Source: Candidatus Bathyarchaeota archaeon (GTDB lineage Archaea > Thermoproteota > Bathyarchaeia > 40CM-2-53-6). Taken from it: 64,000 nt of DNA. The notes below the pieces were generated by a model that saw only the letters and a program-made list of their open reading frames with translations, had not been told where the DNA came from and did not search any database. Position 1 is the stretch's first letter; each line of letters starts with the position of its first letter. Location: NCBI GenBank assembly GCA_963706285.1, contig CAVPLU010000003.1:32001-96000 (forward strand), read 5' to 3'. The position numbers and the translations under genes were made by a program. Positions 586-39,424 of the stretch are shown here, piece after piece.

Positions 586-790
586 AGGTGGTGGTGCGCA
601 CCAGCTGACCCGACGACGAACACCCCTCCTATGACGGTTCAAATTTGGGTGCCCACGCTAAGCGTACCGACGACGAAAACACGCCACTCCCATGCAGGTT
701 CAAATCTGACTGCCCGACCCAATTGTACCGACGACGCAAAGCGCCCCTCCCATACGACGTCCAGTTCTTCGATGACCGCACCAGGGAACA
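586..790 (+). repeat. Tandem array (3 units, ~60 bp) of the dispersed intergenic repeat family
   Basis: CCGACGACG starts at 610, 667 and 728. GGTTCAAAT lies at 636 and 697, preceded by the GGTGCGCACCA core. Confidence 0.85.
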
Positions 791-885
791 ACAATTCGGC
801 CGAGTATCGCAAGTCAGTCCAGGCAAAGCGACTTCATAGGAAGAACTCAACTGACAGTAAACGTACTAGGCTTTTTATGTGGTGA

Positions 886-1332
886 ATGAATTTGCCTGAG
901 AGGGATATTCCACTGCCCACGTCTCCGAACGAAAACATGAAGTCTCCCCCGTTTTTTGCTGCACATGATTTCATTGTTACCCATTACAAGGACTATAGCA
1001 TCTGGCTCTCGACTTTCGGTAGAAAGACCTGCAAACCACGACTCGTTCAAATATGGTTCGCCTTTGTGAACGATCATTTCTACGTATTTTCACGCGGTGG
1101 GCTTGGCTCTCAATGGGCCAAGAACGTCTTGAAGAACAACAGGGTGATCGTGAACCTTGCAGGAAAAGCCTTCCTTGGCACAGCTCGCCCGCTACGGGAC
1201 AATGACATGCGCGATGAAATCTACAAGTACTACAAAGGAAAATACAGGTTCTATCCCCAGACGTACATATTTTCTTGGAAGAAGAGAGTCCTGTTTGAAA
1301 TCGAACTTGAAGGGCTAGCTGACCTCACTTAA
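886..1332 (+). CDS. Split-barrel flavin/F420-binding protein (nitroreductase-like deazaflavin-dependent family)
   Basis: 'LSTFGRKTCKPRLVQIWF...SQWAKNVLKNNRV' matches the T-G-R-K-T-G-x-P-R...W..N pattern of DUF385/DDN-like proteins. Confidence 0.7.
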   Translation: MNLPERDIPLPTSPNENMKSPPFFAAHDFIVTHYKDYSIWLSTFGRKTCKPRLVQIWFAFVNDHFYVFSRGGLGSQWAKNVLKNNRVIVNLAGKAFLGTARPLRDNDMRDEIYKYYKGKYRFYPQTYIFSWKKRVLFEIELEGLADLT

Positions 1333-1423
1333 GGATAATGAAATCATCACACGACTCCCTCAAGACGTGTTGACAGTAGGGCAAACCTTGACAATCTGCA
1401 TGTGTGCGGATCGCTTGGTGATC

Positions 1424-1510
1424 GACGACGACGCACACTTCACGCGCGGCGACGACGAAAACGCCCCTCATGTCGGGTTCAAATCTTGCTGCCCGCGCGG
1501 TACCGACAGC
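1424..1510 (+). repeat. Copy of intergenic repeat family
   Basis: GACGACGAAAACGCCCCTCATGTCGGGTTCAAATCTTGCTGCCCGCGCGGTACCGAC closely matches the units at 610-727. Confidence 0.85.
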
Positions 1511-1799
1511 TTGGCAAGCTGTACGGGGGGTAATATTGCCGACTCTCGCAAGGGTTGAAGAATGTTTGGTCGTGCCACGTCGTCCTGTATGCTGAGTGGG
1601 GTCGTGAGATAGTTGATCGCTCAGCGAGGTTGCTTGTGGTTGCGTTTCTTGAGGTCTCGACTGTGATGCTTGCTCCAGAGCTACTCATCGCCAACTCGAG
1701 TAGGGCTTGAGCCAAGTGTCAACTCATCTCCACGAGGCGTCTTCTGGACACTCGTCAAGGAGGTCTTCTGGTCTCACTTCACACGGCGAGGATCAGTGG

Positions 1800-2488
1800 C
1801 GGCGGGCATGAGAATGGTTGCCCGTTCTGAATCCTGCTACCGGGTATTCAACGAGTGGAGCGTACCCACAGGCAGCGGAGCTGGATTTGGGATCTTTGTT
1901 GATGCTGGCTTCGTCTACTTCACGCAGGGCTATTACAACAAGATTGGGCGCTTGAGTGATATCGGTCCTGGCACTACGATTTATGCCAACTTGATTAGCA
2001 CTTCAGTTGCGACTTTAAGTCAGGTATCGACTGCGACAGGCACCTTCTTCTCAGCGGTCACCACGACGAGTGTGACCGCAAGCACAACGTCTGTGAGCCA
2101 CTCAACTGCCAGCGTCGCAACATCGCTGTCAGATGTTTTCCAAGCGCCGTACAGGACGACCACAGTGTCATATGTAACGAGCATTGCGATCATTGACGGT
2201 ACGTCGACGATTTACTCGACAATGGCCACGGTAAGCACGGTTGGAACCAGCACGTTAACCTCGTTCACCACTTCAACGACTACTTCTGGCGGAACCATAA
2301 TGCAGTTTGTAACTGAGACCCATACTGTATACGCGTACTTGCTGATGATACATAAGGCAATTGCACCTGTAGGCGGCTTCATCGAATCCGTCAACAAGCT
2401 CATGCTGCTTGTGTCGTGGCTTGCAGTCATCGGTGCAGTCGCTTGCATCGGCACCGTAGTCATGATCGTGAAGAAGCGTCGTCCGTAG
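1800..2488 (+). pseudogene. 5'-truncated/frameshifted surface protein: last Vgb-like propeller blade, S/T-rich linker, APVGG motif, TM anchor
   Basis: 'VFNEWSVP...FGIFVD...VYFTQ...NKIGRL' blade, then a Ser/Thr-rich stalk and 'APVGG...TM...KKRRP'. No clean start or signal peptide. Confidence 0.55.
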
Positions 2489-2489
2489 T

Positions 2490-2572
2490 TATTTGTGTGT
2501 GCCTCTAGTGGCGCAGGCGTCGGAATTTGAAGCGTTGATTTTGTGTGTACGCACCAAGGTACCCATGCACGA
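2490..2572 (-). repeat. Inverted-pair copy of intergenic repeat family
   Basis: Minus strand reads GTGCATGGGTACCTTGGTGCGTACACACAAAATCAACGCTTCAAATTCCGACGCCTGCGCCACTAGAGGCACACACAAAT. Confidence 0.85.
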
Positions 2573-2998
2573 TAGCAAGCGAGCACAATAGCCTCCCTCC
2601 TCCAGAATGCTGGACAAAAGGATCAATCAACGTCGTATTTCCGCAACATCTCGAGTGTAAGCTAGTAGGACGAACCATAGGCGAGATACTGCAACTTACG
2701 GACGAGACGCATGTGGGTCCATTAGAGTTCACGCCTGAATCGTTCCCTTTCCAGATCCCAGATCAGATCGAGATCGGAGAGGCCTATGCGGAAGACCCAG
2801 ACGAGTTTCGCTCGGCAAGAACCCCAACGAGCCCATTCTAAGGCTCCATATTATGGCGGTTCAGGTGTAGTTGGCACCAAAAATCTGAAATCCTCGCTAG
2901 CATACAGAATAGATGTCCTTCTCGGGCAAGATGTCCGCATATACGGAGGGGACTCGGTAACGGAATTGTTGGTATTCCTTTGGAGTGTGAGTAAATAA

Positions 2999-5506
2999 GT
3001 GATTTCAAAGAATATTGGTCTTGACTGCAGGCATGGTCGGTTTGAGAAGAAAGGTAAGTTTCTCCTCGTAGTATCGTTAACGTTGGTCCTAATCATTAGC
3101 AGTGGAAGTTTTCTTACATCAAACGTTCTTGGCCACGTGACTGGCAAGACGCTTCAGGGATGGGCGCCGACTCCGCCTTCAATCGATGGAGACATCGTCG
3201 CCTCGGAATGGCAGACCGCTGCGTCATCCACATTCTCCTTGACAATTGGAGGAAACCCTTACGCAGGCACATTGTATATCATGAACGATGCGACCAATCT
3301 GTACCTAGCAGTTGCGATAGCAGATCCGACCTTCAGCCCTGATCCCACACCTGACGCCGTCGCTTTCTACTTCGACAATAACCACAACGGTATCTATCAA
3401 CCAGGTGAGGATTCCGTCGCGCAGTACTCCGGGGTAACCGGGTTCAGGGACCGATTTTTGCAGGCGATCCCTACAATGGGAATTGATGTGGCTTTAGGTG
3501 GAACTACTGACGGGTCCGGAGCCTGTGCCGCACACGCCGGTAACAACCACTTTGAGATATCCCATCCTCTCAACTCATTCGATGATGCACATGATTTCAG
3601 CCTTGGCCCGCTGAGTACCGTCGGTTTCACTATGGGGTATGCCGATGCGGCAGTGGGACAGGACTATTGGCCAGCCATCGCCACGGAGAACACTACGACT
3701 TGGGGTGATATCGTAATTGCTTCAGCTCCTCAGACCATGATGGCGTGGGCTTCGACGCCACCAACCATCGATGGTGTTCTCGGAGCCACCGAGTGGACAG
3801 GCGCTGCCCACACATCCTTCTCGATCGGCTGGAGTTTCGTCGGTGACCTATGGGTCATGAACGACGCCACCAACCTATACGTGGCTGTCAAGATCGCAGA
3901 TACATCTCTCACAACCATGGACAGGCTTTACATCGCCTTTGACAACAACAATAATGGTGTTCGTGAAGCGGGAGATGACATACTTGGAGTAATGGGCGAT
4001 GGAGAATTCATGGATCTGTTTTGGGGCCCCACCACCAAGTTTGACAACTTCGAAGCAGGAAGCTCCGATGGTGAAGGCAAATCATCCGGCTCCGGCGGTT
4101 TCAACAGCTTCGAAATTAGTCACCCGCTCAACACAGCAGACAACGTACATGACTTCAGTCTGACTGCAGGGGACACGGTTGGCTTCGATTTGGAGTACTG
4201 GGAAGAGGCAACAGGATACTGGGGAGACTGGCCTTCCCTGAACGCCAGAAGCTGGGCACACATTATCGTCGCCTCAGCTTCAGTGCCTACACCGGATTTT
4301 GCACTAGCGTGCGCTCCATCACCATTGAGTTTGACTCAAGGCGGAAGTGGCACGAGCACATGCACAGTAACTTCGCTGAATGCGTTTAGCGCAGCAGTTG
4401 GGCTTTCAGGTTCATGGGTTGGGGCAGCACCATCTGGTGTCACACAAGCACTTCCAACGCCCATAACGCCTACCTCCGGCGGGAATGCAACATCAATCCT
4501 AACAGTCACAACCGCTGCTAGCTCCTCAACCGGGTCCTTCACGTTCAGAGTTACCGGAACAAGCGATGCGCTCACACACGCCGTGGATATACCAGTTCAG
4601 ATAAACTCCGGCGCAAGTGACTTCACAATTACCGTAAGCCCAGCTTCACTTTCACTTGGTCCCGCTGCATCCGGAACCACAACGATAACAGTACAATCCA
4701 TAGGAACATTCTCCGCGCCGGTAACCCTGACGGGTTCCGGACTCAGCGGGTTGAACTTGGCCCTCGGTACCAATCCAGTGATCCCCCCAGCAGGCGGAAT
4801 CGCTCAAGCAGTCCTCACCATCACAGTAGCTGGAGCGCCCATAGGATCGCACTCAGTGACGATTACAGGAGCAAGTGGCGCACTTGGTCACAGTACCACG
4901 CTTACCGTCGAAGTCACCGGCACCGGAGGAGGATGCTTGATTGCCACAGCCACCTACGGATCCGAACTTTCAGATGAAGTACAATTTCTCAGAGGCTTCC
5001 GCGACAATTCAATCATGAAGACAACCTCGGGATCCAGTTTCATGATCGCTTTCAACGCTTGGTACTACTCATTCAGCCCAACCTTCGCACAATTCATACG
5101 CGAACACTCAACCGCAAGAACCATCGCAAAGGCAACGCTCTATCCACTCATGGGTATCCTCAGATTGGGCGCCGCCACATTTCAGGTGTCTCCAGCGAAC
5201 CCTGAGGCAGGTGCAGTGCTGTCAGGGCTACTAGTAAGCTCGCTCATAGGAGTAGTTTACCTAGCTCCTCCACTGGCGATAGCACTTGTCTTCTCTTCAA
5301 GACTACGTCGAATCGCGAAGAAACTGCAGTTGCCTATTATGATGATCCTGTTCAGCACCATGATGGTTGTGTCTTTCGTCATGATTGTTGGCGCACCTGG
5401 CATACTGACTATGCTTGCAACGTCCGCAATTGTACTCTCAAGTCTGATTGCTTCGGGACTATTCGCTTCGCATGCAATCCTGCGTGCGGTGAAGGATCCC
5501 AAATAG
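2999..5506 (+). CDS. Cell-surface protein with two tandem CBM9/DOMON-like domains, two Ig-like repeats and a CFI-box-CTERM domain
   Basis: N-terminal hydrophobic signal, duplicated 'PPxIDG...EW...MNDATNLY.AV.IAD...FDNNxNG...FEISHPLN', and C-terminal 'GGGCLIATATYGSEL...LRGFRD...YYSFSP' with TM helices. Confidence 0.85.
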   Translation: MISKNIGLDCRHGRFEKKGKFLLVVSLTLVLIISSGSFLTSNVLGHVTGKTLQGWAPTPPSIDGDIVASEWQTAASSTFSLTIGGNPYAGTLYIMNDATNLYLAVAIADPTFSPDPTPDAVAFYFDNNHNGIYQPGEDSVAQYSGVTGFRDRFLQAIPTMGIDVALGGTTDGSGACAAHAGNNHFEISHPLNSFDDAHDFSLGPLSTVGFTMGYADAAVGQDYWPAIATENTTTWGDIVIASAPQTMMAWASTPPTIDGVLGATEWTGAAHTSFSIGWSFVGDLWVMNDATNLYVAVKIADTSLTTMDRLYIAFDNNNNGVREAGDDILGVMGDGEFMDLFWGPTTKFDNFEAGSSDGEGKSSGSGGFNSFEISHPLNTADNVHDFSLTAGDTVGFDLEYWEEATGYWGDWPSLNARSWAHIIVASASVPTPDFALACAPSPLSLTQGGSGTSTCTVTSLNAFSAAVGLSGSWVGAAPSGVTQALPTPITPTSGGNATSILTVTTAASSSTGSFTFRVTGTSDALTHAVDIPVQINSGASDFTITVSPASLSLGPAASGTTTITVQSIGTFSAPVTLTGSGLSGLNLALGTNPVIPPAGGIAQAVLTITVAGAPIGSHSVTITGASGALGHSTTLTVEVTGTGGGCLIATATYGSELSDEVQFLRGFRDNSIMKTTSGSSFMIAFNAWYYSFSPTFAQFIREHSTARTIAKATLYPLMGILRLGAATFQVSPANPEAGAVLSGLLVSSLIGVVYLAPPLAIALVFSSRLRRIAKKLQLPIMMILFSTMMVVSFVMIVGAPGILTMLATSAIVLSSLIASGLFASHAILRAVKDPK

Positions 5507-5509
5507 TCA

Positions 5510-5640
5510 ATGCGTGTAATGAGCCAGCGGTGGAGGACATTGTTGCGGCGGAATTCTACCCTCGTCGTTGAGGTATTTTGTATGTGTGCCACCAAGTAAC
5601 CCGACGACGATTCAAATACGCATTTCCGCGCCAAGTCTAC
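5510..5640. repeat. Copy of intergenic repeat family
   Basis: TTTTGTATGTGTGCCACCAAGTAACCCGACGACGATTCAAATACGCATTTCCGCGCCAAG, with a mirrored CGTCGTT on the left. Confidence 0.8.
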
Positions 5641-6004
5641 CGACATCGAATTCTCTTGCTGCTCCTGACGTGTCCAAGAATCCTCTAACGTCATGTTCGA
5701 ACCTGTTTCGTACCTTGACCACCAACCGGGATCCTGATCGCCTTGATTTGAGCGACTGTGTATGCCTCTTTGAGGCGTTCCACCATAGACCCCCCTTGGC
5801 GGCGGGTTTCGATTTTTTGGAGGGTTTGGGCATGGTTCTCAGCTTCACTGTTCGATTGGTAGCGAGGCTCTTGAGGGCGTTCTGGAGTACAAGAAGCCAA
5901 TGCCAAACTACGAGTGTTGTTCTGCCGGACAGCAAGGTCTCAAGAAATCATAGCACAAATCCTTCGCGCACTACCGGTGTTCTCGGTCTTGGCCGTTTCC
6001 TTAG

Positions 6005-6682
6005 ATGGATACGCTTTTCATCGTCAACGCGCTGTTTCTGGGCATGAGAGCAACAACCGTTCTAATTCTCCTATGTTTCGTTGCGAGTGTCTACGCGTGG
6101 ACCGCCAATCCCGTCATAGTGCAGAATGATCTCGTATTCAGCCTCACGAATCTGCAGGACGGAAGGGTCTGGACACTGTTTACAGCAATCTTCGTCCACG
6201 CCAATCTCCTTCACCTCTTAGGCAACATGATCTTCCTCTACGTGTTCGGTAACACGTTAGAAGGCGTCGCAGACACCAGACGGATGCTACTAGCATTCTT
6301 CTTAGGCGGAATCCTAAGTTTCCTGCTCAGCTTACCATTCTTCCCACCCGACGCAACATTCGTGGGCGCATCAGCGGCAATATTCACCCTCACAGCTGTT
6401 GTTATGTTGTTGAAGCCGCTCAGGTTCTCTTTCCTGTTACTCATGCCTGTCGGGCTAGTAGCGGTTCTATATTTCCTCTACAACGCCGTCGCCGTATACA
6501 CTCACCTACAGAGCGACGTAGCCTACATCTCACACATAATCGGCTTCACACTCGGGCTACCATTAGGAATCGCTTGGAGTCCACAATGGAAGAGGAATCT
6601 ACTGATCTCCATTGGACTCCTAATCGTATACTTCGTTATACTCTACTTGGTCACCACATATGTGCTACCCTTACTGCTCTGA
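6005..6682 (+). CDS. Rhomboid family intramembrane serine protease
   Basis: 'WTLFTAIFVHANLLHLLGNM', catalytic 'GASAA' and 'SHIIG' motifs, multiple TM helices. Confidence 0.92.
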   Translation: MDTLFIVNALFLGMRATTVLILLCFVASVYAWTANPVIVQNDLVFSLTNLQDGRVWTLFTAIFVHANLLHLLGNMIFLYVFGNTLEGVADTRRMLLAFFLGGILSFLLSLPFFPPDATFVGASAAIFTLTAVVMLLKPLRFSFLLLMPVGLVAVLYFLYNAVAVYTHLQSDVAYISHIIGFTLGLPLGIAWSPQWKRNLLISIGLLIVYFVILYLVTTYVLPLLL

Positions 6683-7027
6683 CTCTCTGGAAATTACTGT
6701 GGCCCACCGTACCGTTGAACTGAGGCCGCGACTTTTTCCTGATGAACCAGAACCGGATCCCCTCAACCGCATACTTGGAATCATTACTCAAGCGGGCGAG
6801 GCGTCATCTCTCATCAGTATCTGCTGCGGACGTGCCGAGAATTCAAGATGAAACGACGGGACGTGAAGAACCTGCCTTTAGCAGACAAAAGAAACATGAC
6901 ATATCCGTGGGTCGTTGTAATCTCAACTCTTACTTGTGCGTGTTTACATCACATGTATCTTACACGCAAAGCAATCGCTACCACGACAGCCTTTATTCCC
7001 AAAGTCCGGTTTGGCTGAACATTCGGT

Positions 7028-7063
7028 AATTGTGTGTGGGGCTAATGGTGCGCACACACAATT
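7028..7063 (+). repeat. Hairpin core of intergenic repeat family
   Basis: Perfect 11-bp inverted repeat AATTGTGTGTG-(GGGCTAATGGTGCG)-CACACACAATT. Confidence 0.9.
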
Positions 7064-7157
7064 GTGCTCGTCTCGCTCACAGCGACTTGTCAAGTTTTCA
7101 TTGTATCACGAAGATAAAAAAAGGAAAGAAAATGAGTTGAGAAGAAACTGAGCGGGG

Positions 7158-7550
7158 TCAGTGTTTCGCCTGTTTTGACATGTACTCTCCGGCTTGTGCG
7201 AACTGTTTCTTGAACTTTTCAAAGTCAACATTGGCCGCGTGCAGTATGGAGCTCCAACCAGTTGTGAATCTAGTGAGAAATGCGGTCTCGGCGATTTCAT
7301 CATCAGTAGCACCGTTCATTCTGGCGGCTCCTGTGTGGAAGTGAATACAGTACGGGCAATGGATTGCAGACGCGACCGCTAACCCCATAAGCTCACGGTA
7401 TTTGGCAGGTATCTTGGTTTCTCCGAAAGAGAACTTCTTCATCTCCGCCCATTCGTGAGGAAGTGCATCATGCGGAATCGCAGTGAATTGATCAAGCACT
7501 ATGCCCATAGTCTTCTTGATATCGGCAAGAGCATTTTCATATTCTCCCAT
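7158..7550 (-). CDS. Carboxymuconolactone decarboxylase/AhpD family protein
   Basis: 'KYRELMGLAVASAIHCPYCIHFH...GATDDEI', the AhpD CxxC core. Confidence 0.9.
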   Translation of the reverse strand: MGEYENALADIKKTMGIVLDQFTAIPHDALPHEWAEMKKFSFGETKIPAKYRELMGLAVASAIHCPYCIHFHTGAARMNGATDDEIAETAFLTRFTTGWSSILHAANVDFEKFKKQFAQAGEYMSKQAKH

Positions 7551-7644
7551 TCAATGTAACACCTCTGATACCCATCTTACCTTCGGGCGTTTCAGGTTTT
7601 CGGTATTTGCAAGTGTTTTTCATGTACTCTGCGGCAACAAAGAC

Positions 7645-7715
7645 AGCTTCGTCGTCGTTTGGTAGATGTGTGCACCATGAAGGCCGCACAGAGAGAAACG
7701 ACGATTTGAATCCGG
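7645..7715 (-). repeat. Copy of intergenic repeat family
   Basis: Minus strand reads CTGTGCGGCCTTCATGGTGCACACATCTACCAAACGACGACG. The plus strand continues AAACGACGATTTGAATCC. Confidence 0.7.
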
Positions 7716-7848
7716 ATAGCATGAAATCTGCCCATAGGTTTGATAGATCAGTACAAAATCCTCGAGTTAAGGCTGGCTAGATGCACGTTTATGCGAGTAC
7801 AGAACTTATACCGAAACAGACACCACTAGGCTTGGGATCGACTAGTAG

Positions 7849-8253
7849 ATGGCTTCAGTTCGAACAGCGGTCGGAATAGTTCTATCCATCATCGGCTTCG
7901 TCCTGCTGCTGTATGCCGGGTTGAACTTCAACAACCTCTTTTTCATTCAAGAAATGTTGACAGAAGCAGATATTCCAGCTTACGGCAGATCTGTAGCCGC
8001 GCCTGCGTTTCTGGCTCTATTGGTATTGTTGGACGGATCATTCGTGTTGGGTCTTAAGAGAGTCTTCAGTCTGAGCGTTCACGTTCTGGGTAACTTCGTC
8101 TGGTTGCTTGCGCTTCTCCAATTGGATCGGAACTTGGCCATGCCGATTACGGCTGTCTCAGCCTATCAACAGATCTTCTACCTAGTATTGGTGGGCGTGA
8201 TCTTCTTTATCGTGGGTGTCATAGTGAACGATATTCCACAACGCAAGAAATAG
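7849..8253 (+). CDS. Hypothetical membrane protein (about 4 TM)
   Basis: 134-aa ORF with four hydrophobic segments. Confidence 0.65.
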   Translation: MASVRTAVGIVLSIIGFVLLLYAGLNFNNLFFIQEMLTEADIPAYGRSVAAPAFLALLVLLDGSFVLGLKRVFSLSVHVLGNFVWLLALLQLDRNLAMPITAVSAYQQIFYLVLVGVIFFIVGVIVNDIPQRKK

Positions 8254-8309
8254 AGAATCATGAATTATGCAGATTGGAAGCTAACATTTCTACAAACGGA
8301 GTGTTGAAG

Positions 8310-8798
8310 ATGAAGGGCATAGTTGTTTATGACACCTCCTACGGAAACACCAAGAAAATCGCAGAGACAATCGCAGAGACACTAAAAGAGTCTGGAATAG
8401 AAGTTGATCTCTTCAACGTAAGAGACGTAAAGAAGTTAAGCGCAAAGGACTACGATTTCTTGGTTCTCGGTTCTCCGACCAAATTTGGCACAATGAGCTT
8501 TGCAATCAGATTCTTCTTGGGCAAGGTGAAGAGTGAGGAATGGATGAACAAGCCTTTCGCAGCCTTCGACACTGAAAATCCTGAGAACATGGAGAAGAAA
8601 GAATATAGTGCAGCCGAAAAGATTGCTGAAAAGCTCAAAGAGAAGAAGATGAACCAACTGTTGCCAGTTCTGAAAGCCGCTGTGTTGGGGCAAAAGGGAC
8701 CGCTTATAGAAGGCGAAATCGAGCGGACAAAAGACTATGCAAGGGAACTCGCCATTAAATTGAAGGAAGAAAAAGGTCTGAAGAACAATTTTTGTTGA
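8310..8798 (+). CDS. Flavodoxin family protein
   Basis: 'VVYDTSYGNTKKIAETIA...LVLGSPT...FAAFDT' FMN-binding motifs. Confidence 0.9.
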   Translation: MKGIVVYDTSYGNTKKIAETIAETLKESGIEVDLFNVRDVKKLSAKDYDFLVLGSPTKFGTMSFAIRFFLGKVKSEEWMNKPFAAFDTENPENMEKKEYSAAEKIAEKLKEKKMNQLLPVLKAAVLGQKGPLIEGEIERTKDYARELAIKLKEEKGLKNNFC

Positions 8799-8970
8799 GC
8801 GAGGAGAATTTCACGCGTAGACCAGCTCAAACGTCGCGAAAAGTCGAAGAGCCTCCTCCACGCTAAGATCATTCGCCGACGCTCAATGGTGATGACTTTG
8901 AGTGTTTGACTATGGTCATCAAAGCCACAACGCGTCAGAAGCGCCTTCTGACGGAGTCTATTCTAGGGCC

Positions 8971-9148
8971 TAGTGTGTGGGTTTAATGGTGCGCACCACC
9001 ACCAAAACTGCCTAAACGACAAGGGTTCAATTTACGATGCCCCCCAGCTGACTCACGCACTTTGGTGATCGTGCTAGCTTCGCTCTCAACACAAGTCTCA
9101 GGACAAGGACTGGATCCGACTGATCTCTCCCGCACCAAGGTACCGGGG
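8971..9148 (+). repeat. Multi-unit copy of intergenic repeat family
   Basis: GTGTGTGGGTTTAATGGTGCGCACCACCAC...AACGACAAGGGTTCAATT...CCCAGCTGACTCACGCAC, with a further unit ending CGCACCAAGGTACC at 9131-9144. Confidence 0.85.
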
Positions 9149-9674: not shown

Positions 9675-9818
9675 ATGCCTCTCAGGGAGAGGCGAGGAGA
9701 TTCTCGGAGGTCGCTGACTTTCGATCCGAACTCAACCGATTTGAGATCCCTAAGCTCTAAGGAGTCACCTATATCGACCGTCCACCGTTCTTAGAACGAG
9801 GAATCGCATACGAGGGAA

Positions 9819-30624: not shown

Positions 30625-30717
30625 TGTGTTTTGCCTACAGCATCCTATTGACAATCTTGCGCTTGAATTCGGGTGAACCAACTGTTAAATAGGTTTGGAC
30701 TGGTCACCGTGTTTGAC

Positions 30718-31410: not shown

Positions 31411-31454
31411 GAAAGCACGAGACCTGAAGCGTACTTGAAATCCCATCAATCTCC

Positions 31455-31550
31455 ATGGGTTGCTCTACTTCGTGCAGCCTCGGTGATCTGAATCGTCGTT
31501 CTGTCGATTTGTGTGTAGGTCACATGTGCGGAGGTCCGAGCATGGGTCGT
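31455..31550 (-). repeat. Tandem copy of intergenic repeat family
   Basis: Minus strand reads CCGCACATGTGACCTACACACAAAT...AACGACGATTCAGATCACCGAGGCTGCACGAAG. Confidence 0.75.
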
Positions 31551-31613
31551 AAGGACGTGTGGTCTCCTTAAGCTAGACTTCGCCGTACTAAGTGTTGATA
31601 CGGGTGATTCACT

Positions 31614-32030
31614 ATGGACGCGACGGCGACTAATTCGCATCTCAAAATTCACCTAATCACACACCCGCTCAGACAGAACCCGGCAACATTTGTCTCCGGG
31701 ATACTCTTGCTCGCGGTATTTGTCAGCTTAGCCTCACTAGTCTTACCATCGGTTACCGTGCCAACTTTCAGAACCGAAACTATCACTATCTCAGGAGTTC
31801 TAGTAGTATTTCCAGGATACATCTCTACAACATCCGACAACTCAACACTGTTCTACAAAGTCCCAATGACGAATACAGTCACGGTTACAAGCGAAGTAAT
31901 CTATTCAGGCTTCACGACAATACCGATGTACACTGCTTTCGGTTTGAGTGACGCACAGTTCATGCTTCTGGGGATATTGATGGTCACACTAGGGTTGTCC
32001 GGAGCAGTACTGTTGAGGCGGGCGAAATAG
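31614..32030 (+). CDS. Hypothetical protein with N- and C-terminal TM helices
   Basis: Thr-rich middle region and a terminal TM followed by RRAK. Confidence 0.5.
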   Translation: MDATATNSHLKIHLITHPLRQNPATFVSGILLLAVFVSLASLVLPSVTVPTFRTETITISGVLVVFPGYISTTSDNSTLFYKVPMTNTVTVTSEVIYSGFTTIPMYTAFGLSDAQFMLLGILMVTLGLSGAVLLRRAK

Positions 32031-32184
32031 AGATCGAGATACCACGACACGAGATGCGGTCATACACTAGAGACCAACGAGATGAAGAAGGTCACATCTC
32101 GTTTAGCAATAGTTCTATCATGGCCTTTGGTGTCACGTCTCTGTTGTTCATTTGGTGCCCGCCAGAACGAAACTCCAGCCTATC

Positions 32185-32625
32185 TCACCTGGACTTCGCG
32201 TAGACTCTCTCGAGACGTGTTGCCACCACTACCAGAGCCAGAGCGAAGATCAGCCAAGGGAAATGAAACACGTACTCAACTAAGGCGAGGTAGACGAAGT
32301 TGGGCGATGCAGCCCCCGACATATGAGCGCCATCGTGAACCCAGTTGAGAACGCTGAACCATGTTGCGATGAAGAATAGCACGAGCAGTGACCCGCGAAT
32401 CTCTTTCGGCCATTTCGAATAGTTCAACGCAAGGTAGATCAGCAACGCGATACCAACGCCAAAGGCTAGAGCATCCCAGAAGCTCAGAAACATGAACGCT
32501 GGAAGCAGCGACATCGGCGGCATATCCGTTGACGGAAATACCATGTTCTTGGCAAAAAATATCACGACGGTCAATGCGGCAGCAACCACTATCAAACCAA
32601 TTGTAGTTACGCGCAAATTGCACAC
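32185..32625 (-). CDS. Hypothetical membrane protein (4 TM, His-containing)
   Basis: Hydrophobic ORF with 'W.HD..H' and 'EYVFH'. Confidence 0.6.
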   Translation of the reverse strand: MCNLRVTTIGLIVVAAALTVVIFFAKNMVFPSTDMPPMSLLPAFMFLSFWDALAFGVGIALLIYLALNYSKWPKEIRGSLLVLFFIATWFSVLNWVHDGAHMSGAASPNFVYLALVEYVFHFPWLIFALALVVVATRLERVYAKSR

Positions 32626-32699
32626 CTAGATGTGGTGTGCTGGCTGAGATTCTTACGCCTTGACATTGACAGATCCACTGAGTTCTCGCTGATTTCTTT

Positions 32700-32780
32700 G
32701 TCTTGACGACGAAAATGAGGGTTCAAATTTAGACGCTCGCGCTATGGGGCTCGCATGCACAAAACAAACGAAAACGTCAA
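32700..32780 (+). repeat. Copy of intergenic repeat family
   Basis: GACGACGAAAATGAGGGTTCAAATTTAGACGCTCGCGCTATGGGGCTCGCATGCACAAAA. Confidence 0.8.
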
Positions 32781-33344
32781 GGGAGGACGACTCAGATAAC
32801 GACGACCGCGCTAAGCGAAATCGCCGCATGTCTTCTATCTAGTAGTTGTCGTCAGTAGACCTTTTCCGTGCTCTATATATCGCCCATGGTCTTATTGTGT
32901 TGTTGAGGCAACTAGCTCTTGAAGACCCAGAAGTGCTACGAGGTTGACATCGAAATTGGTGCGAGATGCGCGTTCCTCGCAGGAAACAAGGCAGCTGCCA
33001 AAGCTCGAATCAAGAGACACATGCGAAGACTTCTCGGAAAACGACCGATCTACGCCTACAGGATAAGAATCGAAAAGATCACAGAGACCAAACTGAGAAA
33101 GTGAGTCTCCGTAGCCTAGTGCGGAGAATTTCGGTTGTGTTCTCATGCAATTCACAAATCTACAACATGTGTGCGCACTGGCTATCCGTCGTCGCTCATG
33201 AGACACACGCGCAAGAAGAGACTGTCATAGATCGTTTCCTGTTCTTGATTGCAGGCGCGTCGATCCTTTTTACAGTCTGGAGAATATGCAAGCAGGGATA
33301 GGGTTCCCTTAGCCCGGGTCAGGCCCTCCAGGTTCTCCTCGTCC

Positions 33345-33425
33345 AAAGCGGGCTCTACAGGGCGCGAGCATGGCAATTTGAACTGTCGTTAGGGGTTGTT
33401 TTGTGTGTGCGTGCCAAACGATCCT
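33345..33425 (-). repeat. Inverted-pair copy of intergenic repeat family
   Basis: Minus strand reads GGATCGTTTGGCACGCACACACAAAACAACCCCTAACGACAGTTCAAATTGCCATGCTCGCGCCC. Confidence 0.8.
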
Positions 33426-33505
33426 TCATGTCTACATTAGGCTATGCTGTTTTCAGAGTTTGGTCTTAAATATCAGTATTCGACCTTTATGATATTGAAT
33501 GTCTT

Positions 33506-33889
33506 ATGTTCTGTCCTAAATGTGGCGGCAAGAATGAGGATAATGCAACGTTTTGCGTGAGTTGTGGAGCCCAGTTGAGTAAGTCTGCTCAACCTTCGCC
33601 TGTGCAGCCTCTTAATGTTCCACCTCCAAGTGGGGAAAAGAGTGCTGTGATTGCAGCGATCTTGAACTTCTTCTTTCCAGGTATCGGTTACTGGTACTGG
33701 GGATATCAGAAGGTTGTGACTGTCCCACCGGTGCTATTGTTCATAATTGTTATCGTAGTTGAAGTTCTCATTTGGACGTTTGCTTGGTTCTTTGCAGGCA
33801 TTATCCAATTTGCCATTAGCGCATTCTTTGCATACGATCTCTACGTGAAGACGACAGGTCAACGAGGCTGGATAGAAGCCAGCAAGTAA
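33506..33889 (+). CDS. Zinc-ribbon plus TM2-like membrane protein
   Basis: 'MFCPKCG...FCVSCG' and 'KSAVIAAILNFFFPGIGYWY'. Confidence 0.8.
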   Translation: MFCPKCGGKNEDNATFCVSCGAQLSKSAQPSPVQPLNVPPPSGEKSAVIAAILNFFFPGIGYWYWGYQKVVTVPPVLLFIIVIVVEVLIWTFAWFFAGIIQFAISAFFAYDLYVKTTGQRGWIEASK

Positions 33890-33919
33890 TCCCCGAGACT
33901 TGCATCAGACACCGAGGCA

Positions 33920-33957
33920 TACGTGTGCGCGGGTCACTTTGTGCGCATACACAAGTC
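33920..33957 (+). repeat. Hairpin core of intergenic repeat family between convergent genes
   Basis: GTGTGCGCGGGTCACTTTGTGCGCATACACAAG. Confidence 0.75.
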
Positions 33958-34602
33958 TTAGTGCTGTTGGGATGTGCGGACTCGCAATATCTTGAATGCG
34001 AACTGAACCGCAGGGCCGATGGCAAACGCAGAAACTATTGTTCCCACCCAAAAAGGTCCACCAAGTAGCCATCCTACGAGAACTGTAGCTGACTCAAGGA
34101 GCGTACGCGACCATCGGAGGCTCATCTTGCCTATTCGTGACAGAGCAAGCATCAGGCTGTCTCGCGGACCCGCTCCAGCATCTACCCCTACATATACTGC
34201 GGTTCCGAATCCCATGATCAAAGTTCCAAGGAGGAGATACGCGACTTGGACCCAGAGGACGGCAGGGGCGTCGGGCACAAACGGTTTGACCGCGTCAACC
34301 CATACGCCGATGAAAATCATGTTCGTAATCGTGCCCCAGCCCAATGGCTCCCGAAGAATCACGTCCAAGAGCACGACCACGAACCCCACGCCTATGCTGG
34401 CCTGACCAAGAGAGACGGGCAAATGGTAGGTAAGTGCCATATGCAGAACATCCCAAGAACTGAGGCCTAGGTTCGCTTGGACCATCATGTCAATGGACAA
34501 CCCGTATAGCAGGAACCCAATCTGGATCACCAAGAAATCATATGCAAAACGTCTCCAGCCCATCCAATGGAACTTGACGATCTTTCTTGCCACCCGCCTC
34601 AC
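33958..34602 (-). CDS. YczE/YitT family membrane protein
   Basis: 'ANLGLSSWDVLH', 'GAGPRDSLM' and 'GWLLGG...GT...GPAVQ'. Confidence 0.88.
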   Translation of the reverse strand: MRRVARKIVKFHWMGWRRFAYDFLVIQIGFLLYGLSIDMMVQANLGLSSWDVLHMALTYHLPVSLGQASIGVGFVVVLLDVILREPLGWGTITNMIFIGVWVDAVKPFVPDAPAVLWVQVAYLLLGTLIMGFGTAVYVGVDAGAGPRDSLMLALSRIGKMSLRWSRTLLESATVLVGWLLGGPFWVGTIVSAFAIGPAVQFAFKILRVRTSQQH

Positions 34603-34771
34603 CGGAAGCTAATGGCCGCGTCTTCAATTTCAGAAGTATAGAAAGATGCCTCAGTCACTGCGTATGTGTTCATAATTTTGTGTGCAATACTTCGCGCGAC
34701 AACAAAACGCGCCTCTCAATATGCCGGCCGAGTAGCTCTCTTCTCGTTACCGCCAGCAAGCAAAATTTGTC

Positions 34772-35464
34772 TCAGAAAGTCATGTTGGGAACCTGCACCG
34801 GAATCAGGTGCCCGAACAGTTCAGGCAGGTAGACGTAGTCTGCGTCCGGAGGAATCCTTCCTACCACGCTGAACGGGATCCCACTCATATCGAGTATTCT
34901 CAGCAGCGGAGAGTTGTATGGGCCCGGTTTTGCTGCAAGATGCTGGAGCCATTTGCGTGAGATCTCAACTTCGGAGTCCAGCATTCCGTTTAGGAATCCG
35001 CGAATATGCCATTCTAGCAGGCTTGTGAGGGGTCTTGACAGCCCAAACTTTTGTCCAGTCTTCCATTCTTGGAAGATCGGACGTGTGAACCCTGCTCGTT
35101 GGAGTATCGCGGTGAGGAGAGGAAAATGCTCTGGGTGGACTTGCACGCCAGTTAGACTTGCGAGAGCCGCATCTGTTGAACAGGTCATATTGGCGTCAAG
35201 CAGGCTTGTTCTGACATGGCATCTTATGGTTTGCCAGCCCAGTATTTTAGCTGCTTCGAGTCTGTGGGTTCCGAACACGACCTCATATCGGCCGTCATTT
35301 AGTGGTTCACTTACCAAGATCGGCTCGAACTGCCCCACCGCCATCATGGACTCTGCTAGTTCAGCTATTTTCGCGAAGTCCACAGGTCCCAGAGGTCTAA
35401 GGAGGAGGAGCCTGCTGGGATGGATCTGACGAATCGGAATATCTAGTATTTGGTCTGGGCCCAT
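34772..35464 (-). CDS. ParB/Srx N-terminal domain protein with unknown C-terminal domain
   Basis: 'IAELAESM...GQFEPILV...YEVVFGTHRLEAAKILGWQTI'. Confidence 0.8.
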   Translation of the reverse strand: MGPDQILDIPIRQIHPSRLLLLRPLGPVDFAKIAELAESMMAVGQFEPILVSEPLNDGRYEVVFGTHRLEAAKILGWQTIRCHVRTSLLDANMTCSTDAALASLTGVQVHPEHFPLLTAILQRAGFTRPIFQEWKTGQKFGLSRPLTSLLEWHIRGFLNGMLDSEVEISRKWLQHLAAKPGPYNSPLLRILDMSGIPFSVVGRIPPDADYVYLPELFGHLIPVQVPNMTF

Positions 35465-35828
35465 TGCTACAACTAGCCTTCAACGTGCTCGGTTGAGTGT
35501 CAGTTCAGTCCGGATTGTTATCTTACTGGATTCATAGCTCTTCCTTTGAACGATTGATGCATGCAACAGCAGTGTGCATATGCGGCGTTCATAACGAACC
35601 GGGTTTCACGACAATTGTGAAGGAGGCGCTGCTTCTTCGGCTTTCGCCTTGTTTCTACGCCAGAATATTGGATGCGAGAATGGACGGAACGGATCTTTCT
35701 TGAGGTGTTGTACTGGTACTGTAGCGACGAGCGTTTCGCACTTAAGTGCAGAAACGCTGTCGCTACACGTACGCATACGTTTCAGATCGTGTGGTTCTGA
35801 TAGTAGTCCTAGGTATGCAAATCTTCGC

Positions 35829-36651
35829 TTAGGCAGACCAGAAAGCCGCTCCAGCGAGCGTCGAACGTTTTGCCTTCCCAAGTTTCTCAAGTTGTTCCAA
35901 TTTGAGACGAGCCTTGTTCGAGGGAAGCGCAAATACGCGTTCGACTTCGACGAGGCTTGTTGGTCCTTGCTGCTTCAAGTAAGCGAGGATATCAGTCGGC
36001 TTCGTCTTCTTGAGTTTCCCGTCCGCAAGATAGTCGATGGCGCTCTCCATTACGGACGGCTGGAACTTCTGGTCCAAATAGATGGTGCGGCCGTGTCCAT
36101 CAGTCACGGCGACGTTGTAGAATCCAACATGGACAGGTGGCGCGTCCTCGCCCTGTTTTTCAAGGTCGGCTTTGAGGCTTTCTTGGTCGGCCCAATCATG
36201 TTTGAATCTTGTTACGTCTAGTCCAGCCTCTTTCACCGCTTCAAGAATCTTCACATTGTCAGTAACGTCTTGTTCTTCGACAATGTTTCGTCGCAAAAGC
36301 GCACGGTATAGGCGGTGCCCTTTCTCGTGGCTTTGACGAATCCCTGCCATTACAGCCAGCGTGGCAGGCAAGAGATTCTTGGGCATCTGGTCGAAATCAT
36401 AGTTGAGGTGCATGGGTACGCCCATGATCTCTTGTGATTCCTTCGCCCACTTGATCATGCCAGCATCGTCGAGTTCGTACTCCTTCTTGTACTCCTCGAC
36501 ATCCTCGTACACCGTGCCGTAGAAGGTTACGAGGTTAATTTGGTCGCCGTAGACCAGCTTCAAGCGATTGAAGACGGGCTCATAGCCCCACGACCACCAG
36601 CATGTAGGCGCTGTGAAGTGGACGACAGCGATACGATGGTCTATGACTCAT
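35829..36651 (-). CDS. DsbA/YjbH-like thioredoxin-fold protein with C-terminal wHTH-like region (5' frameshift)
   Basis: In-frame sequence upstream of the listed ORF reads 'VHFTAPTCWWSWGYEP' (CxxS), followed by a DsbA-like helical insert. Confidence 0.7.
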
Positions 36652-36708
36652 CCTGAACCCAACCTAAGGAAGCATCTTCGTGCCAAATCAAAGCTTGAAT
36701 GATGGATC

Positions 36709-36999
36709 TCAAAGGGTGCTGGTATCGATTTCTTCTAAGAAGAACACTGTGGGCTGGTCGACGACTCCTGCCTTCTTCATGAGTTCTGCGAGACTCGGGT
36801 CGGAGAACATTGGTTTGGCTTTATCCAGGTCTGCGCATTCGAAAATGATAACGACTTCATTCCTGTCATGTTTGTTGCGCGTTAGCTGCCAGCTAGTGAA
36901 ACCTGCGTCACGTTGACGCTTAGCATCGCCGACGAAGAATGGCTTCCACGCGGCAAGATCCCGGACTTTGTGTCGAACAATGACTTTTCCCTTGTTCAT
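36709..36999 (-). CDS. Dimeric alpha-beta barrel (cyclase/ABM-like) small protein
   Basis: 'VRHKVRD..AWK..F...AELMKKAGVVDQP'. Confidence 0.75.
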   Translation of the reverse strand: MNKGKVIVRHKVRDLAAWKPFFVGDAKRQRDAGFTSWQLTRNKHDRNEVVIIFECADLDKAKPMFSDPSLAELMKKAGVVDQPTVFFLEEIDTSTL

Positions 37000-37277
37000 C
37001 CGAAGAATTCCTCCGGAGTAACGGCGACTTCGTAAGTGTCAGGTACAAATGGTAGACTCAGTTTTGCCATTTCAGCGTAGAATATTCTCCCAGCCTCGTT
37101 AAGTCGCTCATACTTGTCCACGTGGAATATGAAGAGGAGCGTGCTCTGCTGAGGAAAGAATGGTCCTTCAATCTTTCCGCCGATCTTGGATTCAATCTTC
37201 GAATTGATCTCTCTCATCTTCTTCAAGTCGTTCTGTAGGTCGTCGCCTTGGTAATCGAGTCTAACCAGTATGATCAT
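36996..37277 (-). CDS. Hypothetical protein (ferredoxin-like alpha/beta pattern)
   Basis: 93-aa ORF whose stop overlaps the downstream start. Confidence 0.65.
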   Translation of the reverse strand: MIILVRLDYQGDDLQNDLKKMREINSKIESKIGGKIEGPFFPQQSTLLFIFHVDKYERLNEAGRIFYAEMAKLSLPFVPDTYEVAVTPEEFFG

Positions 37278-37286
37278 GCGATCTCA

Positions 37287-37469
37287 CTACTTTGCTGGCT
37301 TGAGGTGCGTCAAAGCCTCTGCTCTTGAGATTCCTTGAGGATAATCCGCTTTGTGGACGCGTTCTACGTGCATCTGAGCCACTGCCACAGCGTCGTCTTC
37401 ACCGTGCGGAGTAACGAAGCTGAAGCCACAAGGACATTCCATACTTAGTTTGGTTGCCAAATCCATCAC
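37287..37469 (-). CDS. DUF1059-like small metal-binding protein
   Basis: 'CPCGF......EDD.V..AQ.H....H'. Confidence 0.7.
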   Translation of the reverse strand: MMDLATKLSMECPCGFSFVTPHGEDDAVAVAQMHVERVHKADYPQGISRAEALTHLKPAK

Positions 37470-37685
37470 TACACAAATTCAAGACATGCGTCACGTATAC
37501 TGGTACTTCTTGTAATACCGCACAGAAACTGGACGAATGTCACTCGGGACACAATGCAGATTGTACGTATGGTTACCTATTGTCAGTATTACTGGGTCCC
37601 ATGCTGGGGATTTCGAGGACTCGCACACCTAGCCGAGCACACCTTGCTTCTGGGTGCGGGCACCTTGTGTCCACGTGCAGAGGCT

Positions 37686-38786
37686 TCAGACGGCCCCCCA
37701 GGTGTGCTCGCAGTTGCAGTAGCTTTTCCCGAAGTCATCGTTGTCTACCTTACGATTACGAGTCTTGAACTGGAAATTCGTGACCCTTGCTGGGTACTCG
37801 TTATAGAATATTCCATGCCAAATGGGTCCTATGAGGGGTTGCGATATGTTCCAGCAGCACCTTGCGTAGGTTTCCATCTCTATGTTGAGTTCGCCTTCGT
37901 CGGAGAATGCGTCCACACTGAATATTGGCTGATCATTCTCGTAACGTTTGGTTATTCTGATATCCTGCATGAAATACTCCTTCCCCTCCTCAGGGTCGTA
38001 GAAATTGAGTGTCTTCGAAACCATCTTTTCTCCCCAATCCATCAAGCTCTCGTGTGATATTGACTGCCTAAGCATTGGTATTCCGATATGCGGTAGGAAG
38101 TACTGTAGGTAGGCGCCATTGTCCCATTGTACTGTCGCCCAGTACCAGCAGGGAGTTATCGAGGATATTCGAACTTTCTGGAAATAAGACCTGCCCCTTA
38201 CGGGAGTCTCGGTTTCGCCCATTCGAATTTTTCCCGATGACGAGAGCGCCCTATACTTCAGCATAGAGTATCCCGTCTTTCCAGTGAAGTTCTTCCCTGT
38301 TGACACCAGTTCCGCCATCGGGTCTTTCCATCGCTGCATCGACAGCTCGATTCCAACATTCTCGCTGTCTACGTCCAGCTTGAGATCTGCAGGGCCGCCG
38401 TTGAAGGAATAGGCGCCGTGATCGCTTTCCATTATGATTCGTCCAGAATGGTCGTCCCATTCGGTTTCAGTCCGGCCGTTGTCGATGATAAGAGGATCAT
38501 GCATCTTGTTTCCATCATAGTACCAGGAGGCAACCATTGATTCGAATGTGCTGCGGTTTTCGTTGATCTCTATTGGGATTTTCGGCTCCCAGTGAAAATC
38601 GTTCACGCGGACCTTTCTGCAGTTCCGGGTGCCCCATAGGATCATGAGCTGCTTGGGGAATTCGGGGTTGTCTGGGTTTTCGAAAAAATGAAGCCACCAC
38701 CACCAGTGCCAGGTGCGGTTCTTGAGCATGTTCTTGGGATAAATTTTCCATATATCGTTGAAGACTTTGTGCATTCGATGCTTCAC
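37686..38786 (-). CDS. Uncharacterised Trp-rich beta protein (AttH/tocopherol cyclase-like fold suspected)
   Basis: 366-aa clean ORF with 'WHWWWWLHF', 'G.SYFQKV.....PCWYW' and 'CEHTWG'. Confidence 0.65.
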   Translation of the reverse strand: MKHRMHKVFNDIWKIYPKNMLKNRTWHWWWWLHFFENPDNPEFPKQLMILWGTRNCRKVRVNDFHWEPKIPIEINENRSTFESMVASWYYDGNKMHDPLIIDNGRTETEWDDHSGRIIMESDHGAYSFNGGPADLKLDVDSENVGIELSMQRWKDPMAELVSTGKNFTGKTGYSMLKYRALSSSGKIRMGETETPVRGRSYFQKVRISSITPCWYWATVQWDNGAYLQYFLPHIGIPMLRQSISHESLMDWGEKMVSKTLNFYDPEEGKEYFMQDIRITKRYENDQPIFSVDAFSDEGELNIEMETYARCCWNISQPLIGPIWHGIFYNEYPARVTNFQFKTRNRKVDNDDFGKSYCNCEHTWGAV

Positions 38787-38789
38787 TTT

Positions 38790-39155
38790 TCACTGCTTTT
38801 CCAATCTGAATAGAATGTAAGCCGCGGCAGTCATCCCTAAGAAAAAGTATAAGACTGTAACTTCTATTGGCAAAGTTCCGCGTATCATATAGAACGGAGA
38901 ACCATAGTAATCCCACAGTCGATTTCCAGTTCCATAGAGCTCCCACACAGCATCTGCTACAAAACCGACAACACCAAGCTCCAGGATCACGGGATCCCTG
39001 AACTTGACAAGTCCAGCTATTCCTATGGCACCAAACAGAATCATTAGGAACGTACTCATCCAAATATTTCTGCCCAATTGACTTGCAAGGAAAGTGGAAG
39101 ATATGATGATCAAGGTGATAATCGAGACTGTTGTGACGCTATTCTTGAGCTTCAT
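38790..39155 (-). CDS. Small membrane protein (DUF2878/lycopene-cyclase-domain-like)
   Basis: 4 TM helices with 'WELYG....WDY...LPIE'. Ends 3 bp before the downstream gene. Confidence 0.6.
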   Translation of the reverse strand: MKLKNSVTTVSIITLIIISSTFLASQLGRNIWMSTFLMILFGAIGIAGLVKFRDPVILELGVVGFVADAVWELYGTGNRLWDYYGSPFYMIRGTLPIEVTVLYFFLGMTAAAYILFRLEKQ

Positions 39156-39424
39156 AAGCCGCGTGTAAGCAAGTCGCTGGCTTAAATTTTTGCAGTTTCT
39201 ATGCCCGTGAAAGTTGTGAGATCGACTTTCATCGCACTGCTTGGGGCGTGTGTTCTCAATAGTGTGGAGTCTAGAGCGGAGTCTCTCTCTTGGTGCGTTG
39301 CGCCGAATCATAATGACGCCGGAACAAATATTGGAGAATGGGAATGCCTATTGTGAACAATTCCACTGCTGTAGGACTCAAGAAGGAAATGAAGATCGAC
39401 CTCAAGAACACAGCAGGAGGCGTC

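Follow-up and report, generated by a model that had tools for sequence, protein, structure and literature searches.

Casposons have been recorded in rather few genomes, and most work on them has been prompted by the view that CRISPR adaptation is likely to have descended from them. The casposase of Aciduliprofundum boonei needs as its minimal target a 15-bp segment, duplicated on insertion, and 18 bp next to it that code for the tRNA-Pro T-loop; it also integrates oligonucleotides derived from the element ends (PMC5137440). In Methanosarcina mazei, casposons have 14-bp duplications with an invariant 5′ CGCA, tandem casposons share one duplication, and solo ends adjoin CGCA (PMC4779613). Here, we describe a family of intergenic repeats in a 64,000-nucleotide stretch of a Candidatus Bathyarchaeota archaeon (contig CAVPLU010000003.1, positions 32,001 to 96,000, or C3:32001-96000; hereafter the window). 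The host genome is a 2.13-Mb assembly of 21 contigs, 89% complete with 7.5% contamination. We consider that these repeats are probably junction scars of casposon-like (Cas1-solo) transposons in a tRNA-anchored island. A literature search pairing casposon with Bathyarchaeia found nothing, while the pairing with Bathyarchaeota did return a match.

The repeat unit and a Cas1-bearing element

An initial annotation had proposed that related sequences punctuate the spacers of the window, and counting confirms that the family is real. The motif GGTTCAAAT occurs seven times in the window against 0.57 expected, a number reached in 0/100 shuffles, and fixed patterns matched the host genome far more often than a first-order Markov (Markov-1) control: 47 vs 0 for the unit body (a count that takes in four true tRNA 3′ ends), 40 vs 4 for the tail and 32 vs 0 for the hairpin core. 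Using an nhmmer profile seeded with three window copies and then grown, we found 40 units at E<1e-3 in the genome, 36 of them intergenic by a crude gene call based on open reading frames (ORFs) that covered 77% of the genome. When profile and patterns were merged, the window contained 22 repeat loci, all between 633 and 33953; at the same thresholds neither method found a locus from 33954 to 64000. Sixteen of the 22 coordinates listed by the initial annotation were recovered at these thresholds, and the other six (5510, 7645, 15490, 18000, 20165 and 31455) correspond only to weaker, partial look-alikes by eye, 5593 and 15488 being low-identity direct-repeat members; loci 12225 and 13583 were absent from that list. 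The rest of the 217-kb contig, outside 23.8-66 kb, holds one chance-level tail match and one real tRNA end.

Alignments of 39 units from the host and of 139 units from 13 genomes gave a consensus in three parts: an 18-nt box resembling a tRNA T-loop (GGTTCAAAT-N6-GCC, that is 9 + 6 + 3 nt), directly followed by a 14-nt segment (CGCACCA-N7) and then by a (CA)n tip. In full, the consensus reads (ACGACG), GGTTCAAAT, six variable nt, GC(C/T), CGCACCA, about seven semi-variable nt and CACACAC, and some tails are (CGA)n in place of (CA)n. Units occur singly, inverted, or in tandem with a 48-61-nt period. The structure first described as a hairpin core proved to be (TG)4 and (CA)4 around 14 nt, which are CGCACCA-N7 in either orientation (hereafter the junction core). 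The proposed architecture of two inverted boxes around a loop fits this core and nothing else in the family; the four fullest copies are composites of a core plus a unit, as had been claimed.

What do these parts stand for? In a relative of genus g4 (G031), the same grammar bounds an element of 8.6 kb whose only cas gene is Cas1. On its minus strand, this locus reads AGTTCAAATCTGGATGCC / CGCACCACTATACC / CACACACACAC, then 8.6 kb, then GGTGTGTGTG / CGCACCACTATACC / CACACACACACAC, which corresponds to a T-loop box ending in GCC, a 14-bp direct repeat, CACACACAC and GTGTGTGTG at the two ends of the element, the 14 bp again and an older (CA)n end. The 14-mer CGCACCACTATACC is identical at both ends (14/14), and the CACACACAC / GTGTGTGTG tips form short terminal inverted repeats of ~9-10 nt. 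The element encodes a Cas1 of 410 amino acids (Pfam E 5e-52), with no other cas gene match among its 11 scanned ORFs. Immediately past the second 14-mer, the older (CA)n end together with a fragment of Cas1 shows that elements are stacked in tandem. A second Cas1 locus of G031 has the same right-end grammar (GTGTGTGTG / CGCACCATTAGACC / CACAC).

An 18-nt leader beside a 14-nt CGCA segment matches the casposase targets described in print (18 bp next to a duplication of 14-15 bp); therefore, the unit has the look of a used casposase target and the junction core that of a two-element joint. In a plausible scheme, the 18-nt box would be the leader that positions a casposase, the 14-nt CGCA segment the piece duplicated on insertion, and the tips of an inserted element would be the (CA)n run at its left end and the (TG)n run at its right. 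Each unit would then be the leader-side junction of one insertion, and each junction core the joint between two neighbouring insertions with one common duplication. If elements first inserted next to a tRNA gene, kept inserting at sites of this kind and then decayed and lost their interiors, the outcome would be an island in which scars separate cargo genes that are mostly single and unrelated. The 47-kb island around the window repeats would have been built up from old insertions stacked on one another and would be neither an integron nor a repetitive extragenic palindromic (REP) system, and we infer that the cassette structure of the window derives from casposition.

As far as the published passages go, the likeness to family 2 casposons (A. 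boonei, M. mazei) includes the 18-nt T-loop leader beside a 14-nt segment (14-15 bp in print), the CGCA start of the duplicated segment in M. mazei, insertion at or beside tRNA 3′ ends, tandem elements that share one duplication, solo ends, inactivated copies, and a Cas1-solo gene as the transposase candidate. Unlike those casposons, the present elements have a Bathyarchaeia host, end in simple (CA)n runs of ~9-10 nt, carry no detectable PolB in the one intact element examined, and target dispersed tRNA-like copies, not a true tRNA gene; their scars number in the tens per genome, whole-unit tandem arrays occur as well, and the host has only casposase fragments. The initial annotation's term, an undescribed recombination-site family, was too strong, since the grammar of casposase targets and casposon ends is published and bounds a Cas1-bearing element in a relative.

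Two other systems share parts of this picture. With a 14-bp duplication and no rve/TnsB match in the host genome, the elements differ from Tn7, whose target duplication is 5 bp. The resemblance to Tn7-type islands, which form at fixed attachment sites (PMC4779613) and, for archaeal Tn7, beside tRNA genes (bioRxiv 10.1101/2025.07.27.667033), lies in repeated insertion at such a site and in the resulting stack of partly decayed elements. A leader next to a duplicated segment and leader-proximal growth also characterise the CRISPR leader-repeat junction, a comparison drawn in PMC5137440; unlike Cas1-Cas2 integration, the repeats here are not identical and are accompanied by neither foreign spacers nor a cas operon.

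Which genomes encode a candidate enzyme? Solo-type Cas1 genes (partial profile, ~370-415 amino acids) or fragments of them occur in 3/9 genomes of g1 plus the host genome, in 4/11 of g4, in 3/4 of f2 and in g18, and intact genes of 368-416 amino acids in G009, G031, G033 and G059. The Cas1 profile search found none in g2 (0/12), g3 (0/3), f3-f6 and f9, and the matches in f7 and f8 (some full-profile, 337-381 amino acids) are probably of the CRISPR type. Casposase-like Cas1 is thus found mainly in repeat-bearing lineages. The host genome retains a 139-amino-acid ORF (C10:48975-49394) with 57% identity to residues 248-375 of the casposase; this remnant exists in three DNA copies in all, each within a few kb of unit arrays, which places the casposase fragments in islands rich in repeats. 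No Cas1 gene lies in the window, and the acting enzyme is not encoded there, as the initial annotation had supposed. Because only casposase fragments remain, the casposon system of the host looks extinct or supplied from outside.

In G009 (locus L141, contig G009:C124), a 1.28-kb single-ORF segment lies between identical 14-mers, CGCACCATGAGACC, at 3189-3202 and 4467-4480, and two copies of this 14-mer were found in 0/200 shuffles. A (CA)n tip opens the segment, but its other end lacks (TG)n; this may be a mini-element without Cas1.

The island and its gene-sized segments

The repeats of the window belong to a flexible island that spans C3:23.8-71.3 kb (47 kb) and whose right-hand 39 kb make up window 1..39320 (no strand assigned). 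The island starts immediately after a tRNA gene (C3:23655-23760), and the distance from this tRNA to the right flank is ~49 kb in the host vs ~8 kb in G008. A second island, on C6, adjoins the 3′ end of another tRNA. Host tRNA genes encode CCA and abound in introns; ARAGORN found no tRNA within the window, which encodes the archaeal proteins GatD/GatE, ELP3 and TFS.

Synteny in window 40-60 kb is contiguous in 5/5 congeners at 70-78% DNA identity, whereas window 1-40 kb gives only scattered single-gene matches to the same genomes, some at 86-94%. Compared with genus g4, core DNA is ~65% identical, a 1.1-kb segment 93% and the CMD gene of the window 87%. Cargo identity is thus above that of core DNA both across species (86-94%) and across genera (87-93%), and such gene-sized segments must therefore have moved recently between species and genera. 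One gene may have different neighbours in different genomes, and a 21-kb contig of G009 matches ten different host contigs, gene by gene. That the family is located in an acquired, non-syntenic part of the genome, as the initial annotation suggested, is borne out.

The cargo is diverse. Guilt by association over 442 ORFs near repeats revealed no recurrent family, the largest having four members. Within the window, the island carries AhpD-like, flavodiiron, hemerythrin, flavodoxin and DsbA-like genes and several gene fragments, and katG is cargo directly upstream of the window. Some island genes are broken or partial: CorA is split into two ORFs (window 20408-21371), a 110-amino-acid fragment represents EamA (9342-9674), only the C-terminal part of a cation-efflux protein is present (27219-27722), and two KARI ORFs overlap (L001 15893-16973).

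The unit is found in all 9 congeners, with 7-91 matches each, and further afield in most of g4, f2 and a single genus of f10. When 151 genomes sampled across the class were searched at E<=1e-8, matches were confined to 10 genomes from these three families of one order, and 121 other genomes of the sample had none. Conservation across the 139 units of the 13 genomes reaches 90-99% at box positions but only 30-60% in the spacers, and the identity of a unit to its nearest neighbour is 0.69 within a genome and 0.70 between genomes. Conserved boxes without within-genome clustering point to constraint on a protein-recognised site, not to a recent burst. Units occupy 12 divergent, 13 convergent and 35 tandem gaps; as these gap types make up 25%, 17% and 58% of the background length, none is preferred, and their orientation relative to neighbouring genes is likewise unbiased. 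Placement regardless of gene direction is expected for a DNA-level site; the family behaves as the DNA-level recombination signal that the initial annotation had envisaged rather than as a transcript signal.

The assembly also contains long duplicate stretches of 92-97% identity (C6/C7, 28 kb; C10/C11/C15; C4/C5; C4/C20; C15/C16), which suggest two co-binned strains and are consistent with the 7.5% contamination. In one such pair (C16:4398-5452 / C15:891-2187), a 1-kb segment has been replaced, starting inside a repeat head.

Competing origins of the repeats

How well does an origin in casposon junctions account for the host genome? Several observations weigh against it. Host site pairs on the same strand within 25 kb have identical 14-mers in 0/15 cases, and the one pair that differs by a single base in the variable 7 nt is at background level. 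As no matched 14-mers surround host cassettes, no cassette of the window is demonstrated as a bounded element. With strict (TG)3/(CA)3 arms, 14 nt is the commonest spacing but is seen in only 4/15 cases, a weak preference. Simple stacking would not be expected to give whole-unit tandem arrays, leader included, at a period of 48-61 nt, and neither mixed orientations nor (CGA)n tails are foreseen by the casposon model. No PolB or other polymerase family was detected in the 11 ORFs of the one G031 element examined (Pfam E<=1e-3), which leaves that element without the family B DNA polymerase gene by which casposons are defined, and repeat-rich G001, G002 and G004 (84-95% complete) and G046 (96%) have no Cas1 match.

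The edges of shared DNA add to these difficulties. Homology between genomes breaks off at several positions of the repeat: right after ...GCACCA (at the TFS gene), after TTGTGTG (at others) and inside the head motif (in the strain-level replacement). Of the ends of high-identity segments, only 27/124 have a repeat at a distance of 30 nt or less. The one clean recent insertion that we found, 7.2 kb long with three units (C4:173187-180393), is absent from the matching flanks of 9/9 congeners; the G001 flanks are 95-96% identical, and base-by-base alignment of the empty sites gave the same joint in 4/5 (G001, G002, G004 and G008) and a slightly different one in G007. This insertion is flanked by an imperfect 12-nt repeat, TTATTTAAGGTA/TTGTTTAGGGTA, and not by a CGCA 14-bp duplication with CA tips. 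Thus, some other kind of recombination also moves such segments. The 150 nt beside the unit at the left end of the C4 insertion are not a repeat and are present only in the host and in G001.

Could the repeats then be elements without a dedicated site function? Mosaic intergenic elements are familiar from REP/BIME and neisserial NIME/dRS3, and in integron attC cassette arrays repeats punctuate single accessory genes; the present family resembles all of these in being mosaic, intergenic and placed between single accessory genes, but the defining enzymes and folded sites of integron and REP systems are missing here. The units might be a selfish or neutral interspersed mosaic repeat (REP/BIME, NIME or MITE-like) that provides portable homology only, its link to Cas1 being incidental. 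Modular units in both tandem and inverted arrangements would suit such a repeat, as would breakpoints at several internal positions and the lack of an enzyme encoded near the repeats. We nevertheless regard this origin as unlikely: that the boxes hardly vary in three families while the spacers are free suggests a recognised site, the shared identical stretches of only 9-10 nt would be short for homologous recombination, and the intact Cas1 element has exactly the unit grammar at both ends.

Nor do the mobile-element enzymes of these genomes follow the repeat. The Y1 (HUH) transposase family PF01797 has 0 matches in the host genome; rve DDE transposases are present in all 9 congeners, yet units occur at only 0/8 and 1/12 of their loci; and IS110 and reverse transcriptase are found in just 11/61 and 2/61 genomes, respectively. 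Two further candidates were discarded, serine recombinases, which neither explain the distribution nor adjoin units, and TnpB, present as one copy far from any unit. The more specific REPIN/RAYT proposal of the initial annotation is not supported, given the missing Y1 transposase, the lack of a conserved hairpin in the units and the absence of genome-specific bursts.

The resemblance of the unit to a tRNA 3′ end, with a T-loop box and 13 nt to CCA, raises another possibility, namely that units are decayed tRNA 3′ ends left as attachment-site scars by serial integration of tRNA-targeting tyrosine-integrase elements. A hand count gave 21/25 identical positions between the unit and a host tRNA end (C4:162402-162426), at least two islands adjoin tRNA 3′ ends, and the tRNA bordering the host C6 island has an integrase beside it in G008. 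The enzymes themselves make this origin improbable. Tyrosine recombinases (PF00589), including the XerA type, were matched neither in the host genome nor in G003-G006 (assemblies 77-93% complete). G004 has 48 units and no integrase, whereas 12/12 g2 genomes have integrases and only 0-4 unit-model matches each; moreover, 18 integrase loci (104 kb) contained clear units in three cases, none adjacent, at about the genome-wide density. The bordering tRNAs have different 3′ ends of which the units are not copies, and the model gives no role to the (TG)n/(CA)n tips or to the 14-nt spacing.

Still less probable, in our judgement, is an integron-like cassette system in which the units would be attC-like sites of an unknown recombinase. 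Single unrelated genes between repeats, the same gene with different neighbours in different genomes, and cargo more conserved than the core (86-94% vs 70-78% between species, 87-93% vs ~65% between genera) are what such a system would produce. However, the host genome has no IntI-type gene (PF00589), the genes lie on both strands rather than being co-oriented, and the repeats that flank one gene vary between genomes and therefore do not travel with the gene as attC does. An attC-like fold is also missing. When eight pieces were folded as single-stranded DNA, the core at 7022-7069 was alone in standing out, with z = -4.2; another core, immediately upstream of the window, reached z = -1.5, and six longer pieces (four composites and two tandem arrays) ranged from -1.1 to +1.6. 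The integron-like system entertained by the initial annotation is not supported.

A cis-regulatory element or small RNA (promoter, terminator or tRNA-like RNA) is hardly credible: the repeats are intergenic, and an 11-bp stem is possible in the junction core, which the window map, as we read it, often places after stop codons, yet there is no Rfam match, covariation, or bias in gap type or orientation, and the unit upstream of the TFS-like gene is missing from more distant orthologues. Rfam gave no match in the window at gathering thresholds, nor on an array at E<=10, and RNAalifold on the 39 aligned units predicted 0 pairs and no covariation. By our reading only 3/5 pairs of the consensus T stem are possible, and the T stem does not pair; a tRNA or tRNA-like RNA (RF00005) was rejected on these grounds, and so was the 3′ half of a split or intron-rich tRNA, for which no 5′ partner was seen. 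Periods of 56, 57 and 61 nt do not preserve a reading frame, which disposes of a coding repeat.

Repeat loci of the window and their significance

Along the window, the repeat loci take all of the forms described above. At 633..786 (plus strand), tandem units with a 61-nt period comprise two clear copies (633-673 and 697-734) and a third, partial one (768-786), with nhmmer E values of 2e-8, 2e-5 and 0.5; they were also detected as direct-repeat families D2-D6. Pattern matches at 1402..1500 (plus) consist of an inverted tail fragment (1402-1421, minus) and a unit (1476-1500, plus). The first composite, 2495..2571 on the minus strand, joins a unit (2495-2533) to a junction core (2542-2571); on that strand, the 14 nt inside this core are CGCACCAAGGTACC. 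The junction core at 7031..7060, TGTGTGTG / GGGCTAATGGTGCG / CACACACA, has 0 mismatches to the hairpin pattern and no assigned strand; its inner 14 nt are the reverse complement of CGCACCATTAGCCC, giving the exact 14-nt spacing with CGCA. Patterns and the nhmmer profile together place a second composite at 8972..9060 (plus), with a core at 8972-9001 followed by a unit at 9022-9060, and a third at 17272..17354 (plus), with a core at 17272-17301 and a unit at 17319-17354.

Between these composites, a tail fragment (12225-12244, minus) and a degenerate junction core (12475-12504) matched the pattern within 12225..12504 (unstranded as a whole), and another degenerate core at 13299..13328 (minus) has 3 mismatches. 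An inverted unit upstream of the TFS-like gene (13583..13616, minus) was found by the profile, and homology with two congeners starts exactly at its ...GCACCA end. Further along are a unit at 19589..19626 (minus; GGTTCAAAT count and profile), a unit body at 21520..21544 (plus; 4 mismatches to the 25-nt pattern), a tail fragment at 22998..23017 (plus; pattern) that resembles the 14-nt segment with a CA tip, a unit at 28210..28242 (plus; profile and merged map), a degenerate core at 29905..29934 (minus; pattern) and a unit at 32717..32755 (plus; nhmmer E 4e-7). The last two loci adjoin the two sides of a Zn-ribbon gene segment: a unit (33361-33387) with half a junction core (33401-33424) at 33361..33424 (minus; profile), and a degenerate core at 33924..33953 (plus; pattern).

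This 497-nt Zn-ribbon segment exists in two copies that are 97.8% identical (window 33425-33920 and C9:90131-90626). Repeats adjoin both sides in the window, and none is near the C9 copy, around which C9:87-94 kb is composed of other segments duplicated elsewhere in the genome. A short motif, GGTCAGATTTGTCTAGAC..., stands beside duplicated segments at C9:~90.1 kb and C10:~107.6 kb. The window also contains two other repeats. At 13378-13455, three to four tandem 21-nt hairpin units (AAGAGGCCCCTCTTT...) form a second family, which may be terminator-like; further copies, 80-95% identical, are spread over many contigs of 5 congeners and also occur in a C15 segment that varies between strains. At 29411-29614, a tandem repeat with an 18-nt period inside an ORF was read as low-complexity coding repeats.

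What would the casposon origin imply for the tandem arrays? Conceivably, though we hold it to be doubtful, the whole-unit arrays are records of a casposase that serially inserted short end-derived DNA at the leader-proximal site. The array period of ~57 nt would then be made up of the 14-nt CGCA segment and ~43 nt that run from the (CA)n tip to the T-loop box plus GCC, and each short insertion would duplicate the 14-nt segment. If so, the arrays would be a living intermediate between transposition and the growth of CRISPR arrays, in a lineage with PolB-less Cas1 elements, and the casposase, not integrases, would build single-gene cassette islands across a Bathyarchaeia order.

If the repeats are indeed casposon junction scars, Cas1-solo elements with the target logic of euryarchaeal family 2 would have been active across three soil and wetland families of Bathyarchaeia. 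Having left tens of scars per genome, such elements would also have shaped the flexible gene pool, in which genes for oxidative stress (katG, AhpD-like, flavodiiron, hemerythrin and flavodoxin) are abundant here. The analysis defines, at the level of sequence, a target made up of an 18-nt leader and a 14-nt segment starting with CGCA, together with an end tip; both are testable in vitro.

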